This document shows positions 45,802 to 54,364 of a stretch of 64,000 nucleotides of DNA, piece by piece. A program made the translations under genes and the position numbers. The notes beneath the pieces are model-generated. The model made no database searches. It was not told the origin of the DNA and was given only the letters and a program-made list of their open reading frames with translations. The first letter of the stretch is position 1; every line of letters starts with the position of its first letter. Source of the stretch: Chloroflexota bacterium (GTDB taxonomy: Bacteria > Chloroflexota > Dehalococcoidia > Lucifugimonadales > UBA3495); the NCBI GenBank assembly GCA_027623675.1, contig JAQBVF010000007.1, forward strand, positions 45,675 to 109,674, given 5' to 3'.

Positions 45802-47046
45802 TCACCAGGTCACCAGATTCCACCCACCACTCAACGGGACGAGCCGACCGTTCAAGAGCGCGGATTGGGGACGGTCCACCAGCAGCCAATAGATATTTCC
45901 GGGCACCATGGACTTGACGGTGTTGATGCTGGCGAATGCCGGGCGGGGATCAAAGAAATTCCAGTTCTGGGTGTCGTTATCGTAGGCCCACACCCGGACC
46001 AGGTTGTCGTTCTGGACCAGATCTATCAGGTCCAGAGATGCCCCCACCGCAGGCTGGGGGGTTGGAAGCGGTTGCTGTACCACGGGCCCCTCCAGCACGG
46101 TGAAGCTCCTGACCGCGGTAACTTTCCCCACCGTCGCCGATACGGTGTGAATTCCAGGTGCAAACACGGGCACGGCAAAGAACGATTGGAACCGGCCATT
46201 TCCATCCGTGGCCGGCTCGGACGAACCCGATACCGTTGTATTGCCAGCCCGGAGACTGGAGACATCGGTATAGGCCGGGAACCTTTCGCCGGTAACCGTG
46301 ACCACACTGCCTGGTAGTCCTTCCATCGGAGAAAGCGTGACCAACGCCCCTGGGACTGCGTGGGTGTAGATGCCGAACTGGTCGAAGCCCACCACGGTGG
46401 CCCGGACCTTATTTTCGGATGGAATACCAGCCGAATTTGGGACCTTTAACGTTGTACTGATCTGCCCCCTGGTATCGGGGGTAACCTCGCCCACTTTGAC
46501 GTCACCATAGGTGATCGCCACGCGGACGGTGGTGGCAACGGCCTGGTTCGATGCCGGAAACCCATCCCCGGTTAGGGAGAAACTGGAGCCGCGCACCCCT
46601 TCTTTCGGGTCCAGAGTGATGTTGGGTGTACGGATGGTGATCTGGGTCGTCACGGACAGACCCTGGTCATCGACCGCCGATATCAAGACCACCCCCCCGG
46701 CGATGACCCTGTCGGTGACTGGGATGGTGATGTAAGTGGCCCAGCCGCCCGTGGCGTCGAAATTGATGGGGTAGGTGACGTTGGGCGAGGTGAGTTGGGT
46801 GCCGCCGACGGTGATGACGCTGGTTCCGGCGCCGGTGATTTGATGCGCCCCTGATTCCTGAGCGCCGCCCGAGGTGGACGCTGGCGTGAACCCGGCTCCC
46901 CTCAGGACCACTGTCTCATTGGGGACCGCGCCCTGTGGCGTAACCGTGAGGACGGCGTCGCTTTGGGCGGCTGCGGGACCGGCCCCGAAGGACGCGAAGA
47001 GGACTGCCAAAACCATGAGGAAGACGAGTTTCGGCCTTGGGTACAC
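45802..47046 (-). CDS. Secreted/surface protein with Ig-like repeats
   Basis: Signal peptide (AAAQ); three beta-rich 'L.P..G..G..VT..G.GF' repeats; C-terminal RVWAYDN..W.FFDPRP..GWNLVTW domain. Start uncertain. Confidence 0.75.
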   Translation of the reverse strand: MYPRPKLVFLMVLAVLFASFGAGPAAAQSDAVLTVTPQGAVPNETVVLRGAGFTPASTSGGAQESGAHQITGAGTSVITVGGTQLTSPNVTYPINFDATGGWATYITIPVTDRVIAGGVVLISAVDDQGLSVTTQITIRTPNITLDPKEGVRGSSFSLTGDGFPASNQAVATTVRVAITYGDVKVGEVTPDTRGQISTTLKVPNSAGIPSENKVRATVVGFDQFGIYTHAVPGALVTLSPMEGLPGSVVTVTGERFPAYTDVSSLRAGNTTVSGSSEPATDGNGRFQSFFAVPVFAPGIHTVSATVGKVTAVRSFTVLEGPVVQQPLPTPQPAVGASLDLIDLVQNDNLVRVWAYDNDTQNWNFFDPRPAFASINTVKSMVPGNIYWLLVDRPQSALLNGRLVPLSGGWNLVTW

Positions 47047-47140
47047 CGCCACCCCTCCCAAACAAATCGTTTCACCATGATACCAGGCGGCGGACGGCGG
47101 TCCATCCTGTTACGCTAACGGTTTGGCGTGAATGCATCGC

Positions 47141-48098: not shown

Positions 48099-49517
48099 AT
48101 GGCGAACGCAAGGGTCGATACGATCGTGAGAGGCGGCAAAGTGGTGACCTCGTCTCAGGTGATGGACGCGGCGGTGGCCATTCAGGGAGAGAAGATCGCG
48201 GCGGTCGGGCCGGAAAACCTGATGCCAGAAGCCGACAGGTACATCGACGCGGAAGGCAAGTTCGTGCTGCCGGGGCTGATCGATTCCCACGTGCATCTGG
48301 ACGGACACGACGACTATGCCTTGGGCGCATTGGCGGCGGCCCACGCCGGTTTGACGACCTTGGTCCCCTTCGGAAATTACGCTTTGGAGGGTGACGAGAC
48401 CCTGGAGCAGGCGATACGCCGCGTCCAAGATGAGGTCGGCACGGCGGCGTTGGTGGACTTTGGCTTCCACTTCATCCTGCAGAACCGGCCCAGCATCCTG
48501 GCTTCACTTCCCCGGGCCATGGAACTGGGTGTGAAGTCGTTCAAGATGTTCATGACGTACAAGAAACGGCCCGGCCGGATGTGCGATGACGACTATATCT
48601 GCAACGCCATGGACCTGGTCGCCAAGGGCGGCGGTGTGCTGCAGCTCCACTGCGAGAGCGGCAACATCATTGAATACCTGGAGAACAAGTTGATCGCCGA
48701 GGGGCACACTCATCCCGAGGACTTTCCCACGGCCTGCCCCGATTGGGCCGAAGAAGAGGCGATCAACCGGGCTATCAAGATGGGCGCCGCCACCGGGTGC
48801 CCCACCTACGTGGTGCACCTCAGCACGCAACTAGGTCTGGAACGGATCAAACTGGCGCAGGCCCAGGGTCAGAAGATCTGGACCGAGACCTGCCCTCAAT
48901 ACCTGCTGCTATCCGACGCCGAGATGGCCAAGTTCGGCCCGCTGGCGAAGATTGGCCCTCCATTGCGGCCCGAAGACGGACCGGACCGGGACGCGCTGTG
49001 GAACGGTCTCCGGCAGGGACAGATATCCTTGGTGGGCAGCGACCATTCGCCCCACCCCGAGGAGTTGAAGAAGCCAGGCTGGGACAACATATTCGTGACG
49101 CCCGACGGCGCATCGGTCCCGTTTGGCTCGCCGGGCATCGAAACCGTGGCCCCGTTGATGTACAGCGAAGGAGTGGTCAAGCGGGGCTTCCCCATCTGGT
49201 GGCTGGCTCGGGTGATGGCGGAGAACCCGGCCCGAATCTTTGGGCTATATCCGAGAAAGGGCGTGATCCAAGCAGGCTCCGACGCCGACCTGCTGATCCT
49301 GGACCCGGGAGTCGACCGGGTGGTGACGGCCAAGGACCACCACAGCAACGCCGGGTACACCCTGTTCGAGGGCTGGAAGGTGAGCGGCAGGCCCTGGATG
49401 ACCCTGCTCCGAGGACAGGTGCTTCTGAACCAGGGAACATTGGAGCAGAAACCCGGCTACGGCAAGTTTCTGGCCTGCGAGGGTCCAACCACGCCCCTGG
49501 GCGGACCGGTGGACTAA
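48099..49517 (+). CDS. Dihydropyrimidinase/allantoinase-like cyclic amidohydrolase
   Basis: PGLIDSHVH, SFKMFM (carboxylated Lys), HCE, VVHLS, ETCPQYL, GSDH, NPARIFGL, GSDADL. Confidence 0.93.
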   Translation: MANARVDTIVRGGKVVTSSQVMDAAVAIQGEKIAAVGPENLMPEADRYIDAEGKFVLPGLIDSHVHLDGHDDYALGALAAAHAGLTTLVPFGNYALEGDETLEQAIRRVQDEVGTAALVDFGFHFILQNRPSILASLPRAMELGVKSFKMFMTYKKRPGRMCDDDYICNAMDLVAKGGGVLQLHCESGNIIEYLENKLIAEGHTHPEDFPTACPDWAEEEAINRAIKMGAATGCPTYVVHLSTQLGLERIKLAQAQGQKIWTETCPQYLLLSDAEMAKFGPLAKIGPPLRPEDGPDRDALWNGLRQGQISLVGSDHSPHPEELKKPGWDNIFVTPDGASVPFGSPGIETVAPLMYSEGVVKRGFPIWWLARVMAENPARIFGLYPRKGVIQAGSDADLLILDPGVDRVVTAKDHHSNAGYTLFEGWKVSGRPWMTLLRGQVLLNQGTLEQKPGYGKFLACEGPTTPLGGPVD

Positions 49518-49623
49518 ACTTCCAGTATCGGCGGCCGGTTCGGTCCGGGCACCACGAAAGGACACAAAGCCACGCGCTGGGCGGGTTTGAGATTCGCCGC
49601 GAAACATCTGCGTTCCGGGCAGC

Positions 49624-51714
49624 CTAACGACCGACTTCCGCCGCCATCCAAGCCAGGAATACTTCCACCGCCTCGGGGTCTTCCAATTGGTAGTCGGCCG
49701 AGGACAGCAGCTCCGGCGGCGCCATGCGGCGTCTGCCCATGACGGCAACGTTGCACCCGGTTAATCCCTCGGATTCACGAAGCAGGTCCAACATCTTGAA
49801 TCCATCAACGTCGGTGATATCGTCGCCGAGCATTATCGCTGACTTGATCTTGTGTTCCTCAACGATTGACCTTAGCGCAGTCCCCTTTGTTATCTCAGTG
49901 GAGACTTGCATCTCGATCACCATGCTCCCCTCGTATCGGGTCAAACCCGCTGAATAGGGGCTCGTCTCGAAAAAACTCGATACGGCCTCGCGTGCCCCGG
50001 CACGGTCGATGGCCTGCCGATAGTGGACCGCAACTGAAAACGGTTTTTCTTCAATCACGATTCCAGAGATGCCGTTCAATGCGGATTTGGCCGCCCTGGC
50101 CAACCGGCGAAGGTCCCGGCTGGCAGCCGGAACATCGGTTGCGAAGGTAGTGGTTCCTTTTTCCCATACTTCGAGGCCGTGGCTTGCCTCGTAAATCACG
50201 GAAGGCAGACCCACCAATGACCTCGCGCTTGCGACATCCCGCTCGGTAAGTATCACTACTGTGATGCGGTTGGCCAGCACTGATAGAGCCTGACGCACCG
50301 CCGGAGAGATCCTGGCAAACCGGGGCGCCAAAGCGATGGGCGCCAGCGTGCCGTCGATTGAAGTGAACAGGGCTATCGGAGAACGCTTCAACATCTTTCT
50401 GATCTCACCCAGATTCTCCATCAGCGGCGCTGGCACCCGCACCCCGCCGCCTTCAGCCTCCTCGGCTTCTCGAATCAGAGTTTCCATCTCGAGGGCCCAT
50501 GGATCAGCCGGCAGGATGATATCTTCGCCCGGGTCCGGTAACGTGGGCGCCGGCTGATCGACCGACGCTCCCGCCGTCTCCGTTTGGGCCGTAGGTTGAT
50601 TTCCCCAATAGATCGTCCGATGGGGAAATGGAATCTCGATGCCCTCCCGGTCGAACTCTCGCTTGATCCGCCGCCGCAACTCCCCAGTTACCTCCCATTG
50701 CCGGATGGGTTTGGTTACACCGGTGACCTTTATGGCGATCCCGGAATCGTCGAAGCTGTCCACCCTCAGGACCCGCAGCGGTTCGACAACAAGTTCGGAA
50801 AAATATGCGGCCGAGGAGAGGTCGACGCACACCCTATCGAGCACCCGGATGACGTGGTCTAGGTCCTCTTTGTAAGCGACGGAAACATTGAGGTTCACCC
50901 GAGAGAAAGTCTTGGTATAGTTGCTCGCCGTGGTGATCTCTCCGTTGGGAATCATGTGCACGATGCCGTCCAGGTCGCGCAGGACCGTCCGACGTAGACT
51001 GACAGCCTCGACCATGCCCGTTTTCCCCCCAACCGAAGCCACGTCACCCACCCGGTAATGGTCTTCCAAAAGGACAAAGGCCCCGGCGATCATGTCCCTA
51101 ACCAAGTGCTGGGCACCGAAGCCGAGCGCGATGCCGACGATTCCGACACCGGCAAGCAGGGGAGCGAGATTGAAGCCAAACTCCGCCAGCAACATGACCG
51201 TGGCGATCAGAATTACCACGGCGTTTACGGCATAAAGACTGAATTGGGCCAGAGAGTCGGCTCTTTTTAATGCTTCATCAAGCTCTATACCCGTCTTCCC
51301 TCTGGAAACACTCGTCCGAAACAATGGGGGCAGGACTCGGAAATTCACCCGGGTGATGAATATCACCACGATAACGATCAGCACCGAACGGACGAGGTGG
51401 GTGCCCATCCAGATCGCGGTATCCAGCCCGATCTCCTTCAGGCGGCTTTTCGCGATTGCCACGTCCGCGCCCAACTCAGCGGCGATGGCCAGCCCAACCG
51501 CTGCCGCGATGACCGACCCCACCAGGAGCGCCGTCCACTTTCCGGCCGATTCCTCTTGGTCAATGAGCATTTCGACTAATCGGTCGCCACCAATACCCCG
51601 GGCAACCCTAGGCAAAAAACTCCGTATGCTGAGGTACAGCACCGCGAATCCAAGGATCCCGCCCACTACGGCGACGGTGATCCACAAGCCAGTGTCAAAA
51701 AACCAATCGTTCAT
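49624..51714 (-). CDS. MscS-family mechanosensitive channel fused to a trehalose-6-phosphate phosphatase-like (HAD IIB) domain
   Basis: GIALGFGAQ, YRVGD, GMVE, IPNG, FDREGIEIPFP (MscS); then SIDGTLAPI, SHGLE, EEK..VHYR, KG.A, GDDITD (OtsB-like). Confidence 0.88.
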   Translation of the reverse strand: MNDWFFDTGLWITVAVVGGILGFAVLYLSIRSFLPRVARGIGGDRLVEMLIDQEESAGKWTALLVGSVIAAAVGLAIAAELGADVAIAKSRLKEIGLDTAIWMGTHLVRSVLIVIVVIFITRVNFRVLPPLFRTSVSRGKTGIELDEALKRADSLAQFSLYAVNAVVILIATVMLLAEFGFNLAPLLAGVGIVGIALGFGAQHLVRDMIAGAFVLLEDHYRVGDVASVGGKTGMVEAVSLRRTVLRDLDGIVHMIPNGEITTASNYTKTFSRVNLNVSVAYKEDLDHVIRVLDRVCVDLSSAAYFSELVVEPLRVLRVDSFDDSGIAIKVTGVTKPIRQWEVTGELRRRIKREFDREGIEIPFPHRTIYWGNQPTAQTETAGASVDQPAPTLPDPGEDIILPADPWALEMETLIREAEEAEGGGVRVPAPLMENLGEIRKMLKRSPIALFTSIDGTLAPIALAPRFARISPAVRQALSVLANRITVVILTERDVASARSLVGLPSVIYEASHGLEVWEKGTTTFATDVPAASRDLRRLARAAKSALNGISGIVIEEKPFSVAVHYRQAIDRAGAREAVSSFFETSPYSAGLTRYEGSMVIEMQVSTEITKGTALRSIVEEHKIKSAIMLGDDITDVDGFKMLDLLRESEGLTGCNVAVMGRRRMAPPELLSSADYQLEDPEAVEVFLAWMAAEVGR

Positions 51715-51904
51715 ATATCGATGCTAAGGGCGCGGCAGAAGTACGGATGGTGAATAGGAAAACCGGGACGCCCACTCAATCTTATCAGGAATGGCGGCGT
51801 AGTAGATTCGGAGTAATCCACCACCTAATAAGCTTTCCAGGCAAGGCCCGTAGGGGATGATGGCAGGCTTCCGACGCAACAAAGCAGCCGAAAACGGCGA
51901 AGCC

Positions 51905-51943
51905 AAAAAAGGGGCATCTCGGTGGAATCGGGATGCCCCTTTT
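51905..51943. terminator. Bidirectional intrinsic terminator
   Basis: AAAAAAGGGGCATCTCG...CGGGATGCCCCTTTT. Confidence 0.8.
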
Positions 51944-52106
51944 GTTTCGCCCTGGTGTTTGTTGACCCCTGGAACCTGCCAGGCCCCATGGGAAAACCGT
52001 GCCCCTTTTAACATTGGTAACCGCCACGGTATGCCTAACGCGTTTGCAGGCGCGTTCGAACTCCACCGCCACGATCACAAGGCACGACAGACCGCCGATG
52101 CGCCGG

Positions 52107-53189
52107 TTACCCTACCCGCACGTTCTGGAACTCGGGCATCACGTCTTTGGCGAAGAGTTCGATCGACCGGATGACCTTCTCGTGGGGCAGGCCGGGGAAC
52201 CCGAAGTTGCCGAACACGTGGTTGATCCCGGCGGCTTGGGTCGCCTTCAGGCGCTCGATAACCACCTCAGGCGTTCCCACCAGCGGCGGCAGTCCGGCGT
52301 GGCCAGGGTCGTCGCGGCGTTCCCGGTCTGCCTGGCGGTTGGACCAGTGTTCGTAACCGGGCGGTACGTTGCCATTCTTGTCGATGGGGGAGCCGATGGC
52401 GCCGTTGTGGCCCTCGGACCGCAGGATCCGCGAGGAGAAGTTCTGCAGCTCGGCAGCGTCTCGTTCGGCCTCTTCCTGGGTCGGAGCAACGTAGATGCCC
52501 TTGGACATGGGCGGGTCCAGGTGCTCGTGGGGATAACCGTACTCTTCCATCTTGGCCCGCCAGGCCCTAACCACTTGGGGCGCCTGGCCCAGGATGTCGG
52601 TGGGGCCGCCGGCGATGACCTGGATCTGGTTCTTGGCCGCGAAGTCGATGCTGGCCGGAGAGGTGCTCACCGCCTGGAACAGCGGCGGATGGGGCTGCTG
52701 AATCGGCTTGGGCAGGACCCATAGGTCCTCCACATCGGTGAACTTACCTTTATAGGTTAGCGTTTCCTCGGTCCAGGCCTTCTTGATGACATCCACGGCT
52801 TCATAGAACCTTTCGCGGCTGGTGTTGATGTCGATGCCCAGTCCGTCGAATTCCTGCCGCTGGTAGCCGGAGCCGATGCCCAGGTTGAGGCGGCCACCAC
52901 TGATGACGTCGACCATCGCGGCTTCTTCCGCCACCAGGATGGGATTGTGCAGGGGCAGCACCACCACGGCGGTGCCGATGCGGATGTTCTTGGTGCGGCC
53001 GGCCACCATGCCGGCGAAGGACCAGATGCCCGACAGCAGGCCGTGGCGGGAGAAGCGGTGCTCCCCGAGCCAGACCTCGTCGATGCCAAGCTGGTCGGCC
53101 AGTTCTATCTGGGCCATGGCTTCATCGAGGGACTGCTGCTGCCCCTTGCTCTCGTGCCAAGGGACGATCGTGAAGATTCCAAACTTCAT
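52107..53189 (-). CDS. LLM-class flavin-dependent oxidoreductase
   Basis: WLGEHRF, IGTAVVVLPLHNP..VAEEAA.VD..SGGRL.LGIG.GY, PKPIQQPHPP, IELFAKDVMP. Confidence 0.93.
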   Translation of the reverse strand: MKFGIFTIVPWHESKGQQQSLDEAMAQIELADQLGIDEVWLGEHRFSRHGLLSGIWSFAGMVAGRTKNIRIGTAVVVLPLHNPILVAEEAAMVDVISGGRLNLGIGSGYQRQEFDGLGIDINTSRERFYEAVDVIKKAWTEETLTYKGKFTDVEDLWVLPKPIQQPHPPLFQAVSTSPASIDFAAKNQIQVIAGGPTDILGQAPQVVRAWRAKMEEYGYPHEHLDPPMSKGIYVAPTQEEAERDAAELQNFSSRILRSEGHNGAIGSPIDKNGNVPPGYEHWSNRQADRERRDDPGHAGLPPLVGTPEVVIERLKATQAAGINHVFGNFGFPGLPHEKVIRSIELFAKDVMPEFQNVRVG

Positions 53190-53422: not shown

Positions 53423-54364
53423 TTAGGCGGTTCCCGGCAAGGCCTCGCTGCTCAGGGGGACCTCGGCTTCCGAGGACCAGCCAAGCAGGCCGGCTACGAA
53501 GTGAAATATGGCGTAAGTTTCAAGCCCGAACGGCGGGTAGCCCAGGTATCCCAGCAGAGGCATCTCGAAGATCCGGGCGAAATCCAGGTAGCCGATGTTG
53601 TATTCCCAGGCGACCGAGGCGTCCCTGTTCCACATCTCCCAGAAGAACCCGCAGACCAGCGCGCCCAGGCCGAACGCAACGATCATCCGGTAGTCGCCCT
53701 TCTTAACCTGGGAGATGATGCTGGGCCTGCCGGCCATATGGTTGATGGGGTCGAAGAAGAGGAAGAGGCTCACCCAGGTGAGAGGGAAGAGATAGGTAGG
53801 CCATACGAGCATGGCGGCCATGGATAGCACGCCGAGAACCGCCGTAAAAATGACCTGCCGCCGGCTGAGGACCAGGGCGCGCATCCGCTCGAACCGCTTG
53901 ATAAAGCTGAATGAGCCGACAAGCTCTGACATTTCGAACACCACGGGAATCACCGTGGAGTAGGAAAGAGACGATTCAATGAGGTCAACTATGCCCCGGC
54001 CATTCTCCGTGGAGACATATATCCAATTCTGAGTGATCTCGTTGATGCCTTCAAATACCCACCAATAGGGCAGCAGGAACATCACCGCCACGATCCTGGG
54101 GCTGCGGACTATCAGCGACGTAGCCGTGCGGCGCAGCACCAGCCCATCGATAAACAGGATGAACCCCAGCCACAAAGGGAAAAACACGTTCTGACTGGTC
54201 TGCTGGGACAGCGGCCACGTGATGGCGATCAGAAGCAGGCCAACAAGGCCGCGGTACGGCAGGAAGTAGCGCTGCAACGGTTTTTCCCGCAAGGGGATGC
54301 GCCGGACCGGAAGACGGCTGTCCTCGAAGCGCACTAGTCCTTTCATATCCAGCTTACTCAGCAC
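53423..54364 (-). CDS. Conserved polytopic membrane protein of unknown function
   Basis: About 8 hydrophobic helices; WWVFE..N..QNW.Y and GFFWEMWN..W.Y..FEMPLLGYLGYPPF internal repeats. Confidence 0.8.
   Translation of the reverse strand: MLSKLDMKGLVRFEDSRLPVRRIPLREKPLQRYFLPYRGLVGLLLIAITWPLSQQTSQNVFFPLWLGFILFIDGLVLRRTATSLIVRSPRIVAVMFLLPYWWVFEGINEITQNWIYVSTENGRGIVDLIESSLSYSTVIPVVFEMSELVGSFSFIKRFERMRALVLSRRQVIFTAVLGVLSMAAMLVWPTYLFPLTWVSLFLFFDPINHMAGRPSIISQVKKGDYRMIVAFGLGALVCGFFWEMWNRDASVAWEYNIGYLDFARIFEMPLLGYLGYPPFGLETYAIFHFVAGLLGWSSEAEVPLSSEALPGTA

Follow-up and report, generated by a model that had tools for sequence, protein, structure and literature searches.

We analysed a window of 64,000 nucleotides from a Chloroflexota bacterium (GTDB lineage Bacteria; Chloroflexota; Dehalococcoidia; Lucifugimonadales; UBA3495; GenBank assembly GCA_027623675.1, contig JAQBVF010000007.1, positions 45,675 to 109,674 of the forward strand). 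On its minus strand, at window positions 49624..51714, lies a gene for a 696-aa protein in which a mechanosensitive channel of the MscS family is fused to a domain of the trehalose-6-phosphate phosphatase (T6PP) family. It is established that this is an MscS-family channel, with five predicted transmembrane (TM) helices, and that its C-terminal T6PP-family domain lacks the HAD nucleophile. The fusion is rare and restricted to one lineage: an MscS-like channel carries an appendage derived from an enzyme, in live as well as dead forms. That the HAD domain of the window protein is a pseudo-enzyme is well supported by comparison with its relatives, and the conservation of a domain without its nucleophile suggests a channel linked to the cell's own osmolyte synthesis. 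We give a probability of about 0.4 to the more specific reading, in which the domain would be a non-catalytic sensor of trehalose-6-phosphate (T6P) or trehalose that tunes the channel to compatible-solute synthesis.

The nucleophile is lost in motif I of the HAD domain (F450-T-S-I-D-G-T-L457, 50344..50367, minus strand like all features of the gene), as seen in alignments to relatives and to PDB sequences. HMMER places 'ftsidgtl' of the window protein on 'ffdfdgtl' of Mycobacterium tuberculosis OtsB2 (PDB 5gvx), so that Ser452, encoded by the codon TCA at 50359..50361, stands at the position of the nucleophile Asp; the initial annotation of the window, made from the sequence alone, had pointed to this Ser codon, and correctly. 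The remaining motifs that it listed are also all present by alignment: motif III (K610-G611, 49882..49887), motif IV (G630-D-D-I-T-D635, 49810..49827), H512-G-L-E515, E555-E-K557 and H564-Y-R566. A register shift that would turn D454 into the nucleophile was considered and rejected, there being no indel relative to 29 relatives with an intact motif I (D-type) or to the PDB sequences, and position 452 being Pro in one orthologue.

The loss is a property of a whole clade. The nucleophile Asp is absent from all six of its members, five having Ser and one Pro (P0007, locus L008, codon CCC), and we refer to these six sequences as the S/P clade; among them P0005 and P0006 hardly differ, and in the HAD domain P0007 shares 91-92% of its residues with each. 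Everywhere else DxDG(T/S) is kept: in 11/11 other fusions and 4/4 fragments, in 16/16 of the closest standalone T6PPs from SAR202 genomes, and in the seven best near-length database hits (7/7). The question raised by the initial annotation, whether the change from Asp to Ser is conserved, thus has a divided answer, with Ser or Pro throughout the window protein's clade and Asp in all 11 fusions outside it. In a tree of 37 HAD domains, built by a quick method and with P0091 and P0094 on long branches whose placement is unsure, the S/P clade (support 100) falls within a larger clade (support 97) whose 18 rows are fusions and fragments, with the D-type fusion P0090 (L011) as its sister. Since the S/P clade is nested among D-type fusions, the fusion is older than the loss of the nucleophile, and the loss is derived; the ancestral fusion, judging from these sequences, probably paired a channel with an apparently competent T6PP. 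The idea of a pseudo-enzyme therefore stands for the S/P clade, where the nucleophile is absent and the domain is under selection, and fails as an account of how the fusion began. Motif II (T490-E491-R492, 50239..50247) likewise bears out half of what was first claimed for it, namely that TER replaces SGR: the residue at 491 is unusual (Glu, Ala or Gly in the clade, Gly in 29/29 D-type relatives), but Thr is the norm at this motif in the SAR202 T6PP clade. T490 and R492 are invariant in the S/P clade.

In the T6PP of Brugia, replacement of either motif I Asp (D213 or D215) abolishes all detectable activity, according to the accessible part of that report (PMC4081830), and for this reason the T6P phosphatase activity of the window domain is predicted to be absent. 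The domain is a member of the T6PP family that should not be filed as a T6P phosphatase.

Loss of the nucleophile has not been followed by general decay of the domain. Between the window gene and L008, the one pair available, both without the nucleophile, the ratio of nonsynonymous to synonymous change (dN/dS, omega) is 0.114-0.116 in the HAD domain, 0.03-0.04 in the MscS core, 0.17 in the linker and 0.16-0.20 in the N-terminus, values that are approximate because dS for this pair is about 1.5, near saturation. Six close pairs of standalone T6PPs with DxD intact give 0.14-0.29. By dN/dS the HAD domain as a whole shows no relaxation, its omega being no higher than that of intact T6PPs; the domain is under purifying selection and not in random decay, the alternative that the initial annotation had raised against itself. 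Identities within the clade, leaving aside the near-identical pairs among P0005-P0007, are 73-82% in the HAD domain, 44-66% in the linker (most pairs) and 58-75% in the N-terminus; the vestibule of the channel evolves slowest (87-92%, and 95-100% among P0005-P0007, with an omega of 0.04) and the linker is the most variable part. Forty positions of the HAD domain are conserved in at least 85% of the 29 D-type relatives, and 31 of these are unchanged in the S/P clade, 4 mostly unchanged and 5 changed. Of the positions shared by all 29, D452 alone has changed drastically. The other catalytic residues of the HAD fold (D454, T490, K610, D631, D632 and D635) are invariant in the clade, as are R492, H512, E515, E555, K557, Y565, R566 and T634. 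We read this pattern as catalysis having been lost and its fine geometry no longer policed, with the fold and most of the pocket apparently retained.

The architecture that the initial annotation described, an uninterrupted 696-aa reading frame with extra N-terminal TM helices, a MscS core, a Pro/Glu-rich linker and a complete OtsB-like HAD domain, is recovered by Pfam, hydropathy and the NCBIfam model TIGR00685. The frame has no internal stop and ends with the stop codon at 49624-49626. All three MscS modules exceed their Pfam cut-offs (given in parentheses): PF21088 with 33.5 bits (23.1), PF00924 with 52.7 (20.2) and PF21082 with 38.7 (21). Hydropathy gives five hydrophobic segments (residues 5-34, 59-88, 99-132, 154-178 and 179-205), two of them N-terminal to the MscS-type three; E. 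coli MscS has three TM segments, two fewer than this channel. The two extra helices (5-34 and 59-88) fall in residues 1-98 (51421..51714), where the AlphaFold2 model has a helix at 2-80 and Foldseek aligns about 380 columns to five-TM structures of YnaI. The MscS-type TM1-TM3 region, with the pore-lining helix (LAPLLAGVGIVGIALGFGAQ), occupies residues 99-205 (51100..51420) by hydropathy and by the Pfam match MS_channel_1st at 163-202, and residues 183-200 are invariant in the clade. The cytoplasmic beta and alpha-beta domains that make up the vestibule (residues 206-370, 50605..51099) match MS_channel_2nd (204-267) and MS_channel_3rd (273-361), and Foldseek relates them to MscS, YbiO and the T. 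tengcongensis MscS. Because the fusion protein reaches no NCBIfam equivalog cut-off for MscS (NF047601 scores 178 against 500), its channel is a member of the MscS family and not an orthologue of a named channel.

An Ala/Pro/Glu-rich linker (residues 371-429, 50428..50604; nine Ala, eight Pro, eight Glu and six Gly among 59 residues) leads from the vestibule to the HAD domain. The AlphaFold2 model has residues 369-399 disordered and a helix at 405-420. Within the linker the motif LPDPGExIILPADPWALE (residues 392-409, 50488..50541) is invariant at 13 of its 18 positions across the six S/P proteins, and its DPW/DPF core is found again in 9/11 D-type fusions; together with the predicted helix this motif could serve as a docking element. 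The HAD-IIB domain itself, consisting of a core and a C2B cap, spans residues 430-696 (49627..50427), and is recognised by Pfam Trehalose_PPase (PF02358 at residues 451-643, 86.2 bits against a cut-off of 27, E 2.4e-24), by the NCBIfam T6PP equivalog TIGR00685 (126.6 bits against 68.05), by alignment to 5gvx and by Foldseek.

The AlphaFold2 model of the fusion, made from an alignment of 72 rows, has a mean predicted local distance difference test (pLDDT) score of 89, and in the MscS part, across residues 100-360, the score is mostly 84-98. Foldseek matches this part to 3t9n, 7a46, 7onl and 2oau at E 1e-13 to 1e-17, and the HAD part to 5gvx (E 6.8e-20), 1u02 (TM-score 0.83) and 6upb (TM-score 0.79), TM-scores being normalised to the target. 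A complex prediction combining two copies of the MscS cytoplasmic part (205-372) with the linker helix and HAD domain (400-696) scored 0.00 with its controls not folded, and therefore bears on binding in neither direction.

Seventeen distinct full-length fusions of MscS and T6PP with identical domain order were collected from ENA, JGI, NCBI and Logan. When the HAD part was searched against proteins close to the fusion in total length, five further fusions of 694-696 aa came up at 73-76% identity, besides the record of the window protein itself. A profile of the HAD domain run against longer proteins (8000 candidates scored, hits taken at E <= 1e-20) found MscS together with PF02358 in 15 of 69 hits. 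P0091 and P0094 came from a further search, of 1.84 billion cluster representatives, which also returned the fragments P0092, P0093, P0113 and P0151. All fusions whose source is named come from SAR202 or Chloroflexota, and their public names, all of them automatic, are 'trehalose-phosphatase [SAR202 cluster bacterium]', the same with '[Chloroflexota bacterium]', or 'moderate conductance mechanosensitive channel'. For the order, 201 sampled genomes were covered, of which G000, G046 and G166 have a long fused frame and G042 a remnant; for the class, 401 sampled genomes yielded no additional fusion. A scan of genome contigs gave two loci, the fusion L008 and a plain MscS match in Paraburkholderia (L009, 28% identity). 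A scan of metagenome contigs matched 599 pattern stretches, none coding for a relative; P0003-P0006 derive from ENA and are not expected in the collection scanned. Locus L013 corresponds to the protein P0240. Two Logan contigs from two runs, which may be the source samples, cover the whole window gene with 0 differences. A groundwater run (X3, 0.10 of words) gave short pieces only, and no RNA run was listed among those carrying the sequence. The fusion is thus neither a singleton nor a misassembly, a concern that the initial annotation had set out beforehand.

The start of the gene deserves a remark, since the public gene call (P0002) has 648 aa, starts at Met49 and omits residues 1-48 (window 51570-51714), and with them the first hydrophobic helix. 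The N-terminus MxDWFFxTGLWI is conserved in 6/6 orthologues, which makes the 696-aa start the better call.

Several members of the family have taken paths of their own. P0151 (L012:970-2340 and L033:6130-7473, contig C10 of G042) is a fusion derivative from which the MscS core has been deleted: what remains is an N-terminal hydrophobic helix that runs straight into the last MscS strand (FDDEGIEIPFPQRT), and after it the linker and a T6PP that is intact. Its gene is convergent with a gene for trehalose-6-phosphate synthase (TPS) and adjoins alaS; the fusion in G166 also adjoins alaS, and G166 has no TPS match. In the 672-aa fusion P0091 (branch length 1.74) DLDGT is kept, motif III Lys has become Leu, and K557 is replaced by R, H564 by S, G596 by R and T634 by L; here the catalytic site of a fused protein has eroded a second time, independently. 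The HAD domain of P0094 groups with standalone f45 sequences (support 97), which may point to an independent fusion, its placement in the tree being unsure. Genome G000 holds two more genes of the MscS family (L005 on C29 and L007 on C2), one of 428 aa with a Pro/Arg/Asp-rich tail and one a short form of 200 aa, and neither is a close paralogue of the fused channel.

Live and dead fusions are found beside different sets of trehalose genes. G000, which carries an S/P fusion, has an intact otsA-otsB pair on another contig, its OtsB reading LLLFDYDGTL and sharing only 29% identity with the fused domain; the genome that encodes the Pro variant, G201, is organised alike, and its OtsB (DYDGT) is intact as well. 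In G046, whose fusion (P0090) is D-type, the only other T6PP-like gene (L034:2108-3043, contig C79) reads GIVVD*DGTISRI: a TAA stands in frame at the x of motif I of an otherwise intact domain, so that it is either a fresh pseudogene or a sequencing error. No other PF02358 match was found in G166 (D-type fusion) or G042 (D-type remnant). In G042 and G184 a T6PP of the fusion's clade adjoins or lies near a TPS gene, which indicates that this T6PP clade supplies the working OtsB of those genomes. None of the five genomes compared, which are related and not independent, has more than one T6PP that looks intact, and dead fusions coincide exactly with the presence of a canonical OtsB. G000 has two divergent TPS genes, L004 (C5) and L003 (C47, in the otsA-otsB pair), which are 31% identical to each other, and G201 likewise has two; the C5 TPS is 57% identical to the TPS beside the G042 remnant, while the operon TPS is 31% identical to it.

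These observations can be joined into a mechanism. By homology with MscS, the C-terminus would leave the bottom of the vestibule and continue through the flexible 59-residue linker into the HAD domain, and by homology with the heptameric MscS there would be seven such domains under the vestibule, one per subunit. The domain would no longer hydrolyse T6P yet would still bind it (or trehalose), as a natural nucleophile-mutant 'substrate trap'. A nucleophile mutant of the Cryptococcus neoformans enzyme, Tps2PD D24N, was crystallised with T6P (PDB 5DX9), as stated in the accessible part of the source (PMC11997177). A ring of HAD domains of this kind would report the state of compatible-solute synthesis and may change the gating threshold, the inactivation or how accessible the portals are. 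For the D-type relatives, which share this architecture, it probably means that an active T6PP sits at the channel.

Several points weigh against this sensor reading. That the domain binds T6P or trehalose and modulates gating is something we infer, and purifying selection would likewise result from a purely structural role; the omega values themselves are rough, for the reason given above. Within the S/P clade T456 is Ala in 1/6, G491 is Glu or Ala in 3/6, H564 is Tyr in 1/6 and G510 is Ala in the window protein, positions that are 93-100% conserved in the D-type relatives, and K/R597 has become Ser or Asn in five of the clade; since active-site positions vary, the phosphate site may be eroding. 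The linker is long, disordered at 369-399 and variable apart from one motif, which fits loose tethering better than tight allosteric coupling. Among the genomes, the pattern of trehalose genes comes from relatives, and a search of G166, rated 96% complete, turned up no PF00982 synthase, which is a misfit with a simple pathway from OtsA to a fused OtsB.

The alternative that withstands the evidence best is a HAD domain that is a non-catalytic scaffold and senses no ligand, and that is kept for stabilising or spacing the heptamer, for restricting entry to the vestibule or for docking a partner at the membrane; we consider it unlikely, while giving it real weight. Selection on the domain persists without the nucleophile, as it should for a scaffold, and Foldseek also matches 5hus, the C-terminal domain of a Candida albicans trehalose synthase regulatory protein (E 6.3e-10). 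P0091, too, is still an open 672-aa protein, though its motif III Lys and several residues of the cap are gone. A candidate for the partner, to which we extend the same limited credence, is the second TPS of G000 (C5), the orthologue of which stands beside the G042 remnant; G000 retains this TPS, 57% identical to that on the remnant side, though its fused T6PP is dead, and the inactive TPP-like (T6PP-like) domains of Tps3/Tsl1 offer a comparison. Against a scaffold speak the phosphate and Mg residues T490, K610, D631 and D635 and the cap residues E555, K557, Y565 and R566, all invariant, which a pure scaffold would not need, and no partner gene is linked to the fusion within the window.

Less probable again is a recently inactivated relic, that is, a fused T6PP made redundant by a canonical otsA-otsB pair and drifting to loss while the channel part carries the function. 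Such drift would agree with the intact canonical OtsB in both S/P genomes, with the variation in the clade at the otherwise invariant positions 456, 491, 510, 564 and 597, and with a ratio of HAD to MscS divergence of 1.6-2.6 in the clade, slightly above the 0.9-2.1 of close D-type pairs; large deletions do occur in the fusion family, as the G042 remnant attests. It agrees poorly with a domain that is uninterrupted in six proteins differing at up to 27% of HAD residues, with an omega of 0.11, far from 1 and no higher than in active T6PPs, and with 31/40 family-conserved positions unchanged; position 452, moreover, went on changing from Ser to Pro while the rest held.

We find it very hard to believe that the domain is still an enzyme, using another nucleophile (water or D454) or acting on another substrate. 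D454, T490, K610, D631 and D635 are all retained, as this would demand, but there is no indel to shift the register, the active-site positions 456 and 491 are relaxed, and loss of the nucleophile Asp abolishes detectable activity in the Brugia T6PP, as far as the accessible part of that paper goes (PMC4081830). Ser cannot be a conserved substitute nucleophile, because position 452 is Pro in P0007/L008. An artefact, in which a lost stop codon, a chimeric assembly or a sequencing error made the fusion or the Ser codon, is excluded, its only hint being the shorter 648-aa database gene call, against 17 distinct fusions from several sources with a common domain order, the S/P substitution in 6/6 clade members, contigs of two runs that bridge the gene with 0 differences, and a GC content that is even along the gene (0.56-0.59).

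Full-text literature searches found no paper on a fusion of MscS and T6PP, in agreement with the initial annotation, which knew of no described example; supplementary gene tables of SAR202 papers could list such genes. The word 'mechanosensitive' is absent from two SAR202 papers outside their supplements (PMC9088039, PMC11994032). In their accessible parts these papers describe SAR202 as abundant dark-ocean bacteria and discuss OtsA as a stress or storage trait (PMC11994032, PMC9088039). A 2026 review, in the part accessible, treats the C-terminal nucleotide-binding domain of bCNG channels as unique to them, makes no mention of trehalose, of phosphatase or of any fusion of MscS with an enzyme domain of this kind, and describes the roles of MscS-like channels beyond downshock protection as poorly explored (PMC13591265).

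The bCNG channels are the closest architectural analogue of the fusion, having a MscS-like core followed by a C-terminal soluble domain that binds a small molecule. There the domain binds a cyclic nucleotide (cNMP), a second messenger, whereas the fusion has a T6PP-type HAD domain, the presumed ligand of which is an intermediate of osmolyte synthesis; the appended domain also looks like a working enzyme in most members of the fusion family. No cNMP-binding family was among the Pfam matches of the fusion at E <= 0.1. YnaI, YbiO and MscK share with it the MscS core and the additional N-terminal TM helices, and Foldseek aligns 200-440 columns to them, but in these matches the MscS part alone aligns, and none of them is described with a cytoplasmic enzyme-family domain after the vestibule. 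The bacterial T6PPs (OtsB2 5gvx, Salmonella 6upb and Thermoplasma acidophilum 1u02) are alike in PF02358 and TIGR00685, in sequence (5gvx, E 1.6e-24) and in fold (TM-score 0.79-0.83), and the window domain retains their motifs II, III and IV and the cap residues; it differs in having Ser or Pro at the motif I Asp and in being covalently attached to a membrane channel. As a domain, its nearest analogue is in the fungal regulatory subunits Tps3 and Tsl1, which have a T6PP-fold domain without phosphatase activity and regulate trehalose metabolism. In plant class II TPS proteins the TPP-like domain is non-catalytic as well. The domains of Tps3 and Tsl1, however, are fused to TPS-like domains in soluble complexes, whereas that of the window protein sits on an ion channel and has active-looking bacterial T6PPs as its nearest kin.

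The neighbours of the gene in the window encode an amidohydrolase, a short-chain dehydrogenase/reductase, a luciferase-like monooxygenase and an amidase, none linked to trehalose, and there is no conserved synteny between this locus and those of the D-type fusions. An Rfam scan of window positions 49000-53000 had no match at E <= 0.1, which leaves the 390-bp gap upstream of the gene without a recognised riboswitch or leader, and a scan for promoters and terminators gave counts no different from shuffle level. Two further genes of the window, both on the minus strand, have no Pfam family at E <= 1e-5: one at 53423-54364 for a 313-aa multi-pass membrane protein, and one at 45802-47061 for a 419-aa protein whose N-terminus is signal-like and in which 'TV.G.GF' segments recur.

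For the nucleophile-less clade the public name 'trehalose-phosphatase' is probably wrong as an enzyme assignment. For the question of how bacteria coordinate the synthesis of osmolytes with their release through mechanosensitive channels, a channel that carries the final enzyme of trehalose synthesis offers a direct and testable connection. Live and dead versions of one fusion, the dead found where a separate OtsB exists, amount to a natural experiment, in which catalytic contributions can be separated from non-catalytic ones, be they binding or structural. It is a tentative and rather doubtful generalisation that the whole MscS-T6PP family couples membrane tension to the trehalose pathway, the D-type as a mechanosensitive enzyme and the S/P clade as a T6P receptor that would gate or desensitise an osmolyte valve; if true, the S/P fusion would be the first MscS channel that is tied to osmolyte synthesis through gating by a metabolite.

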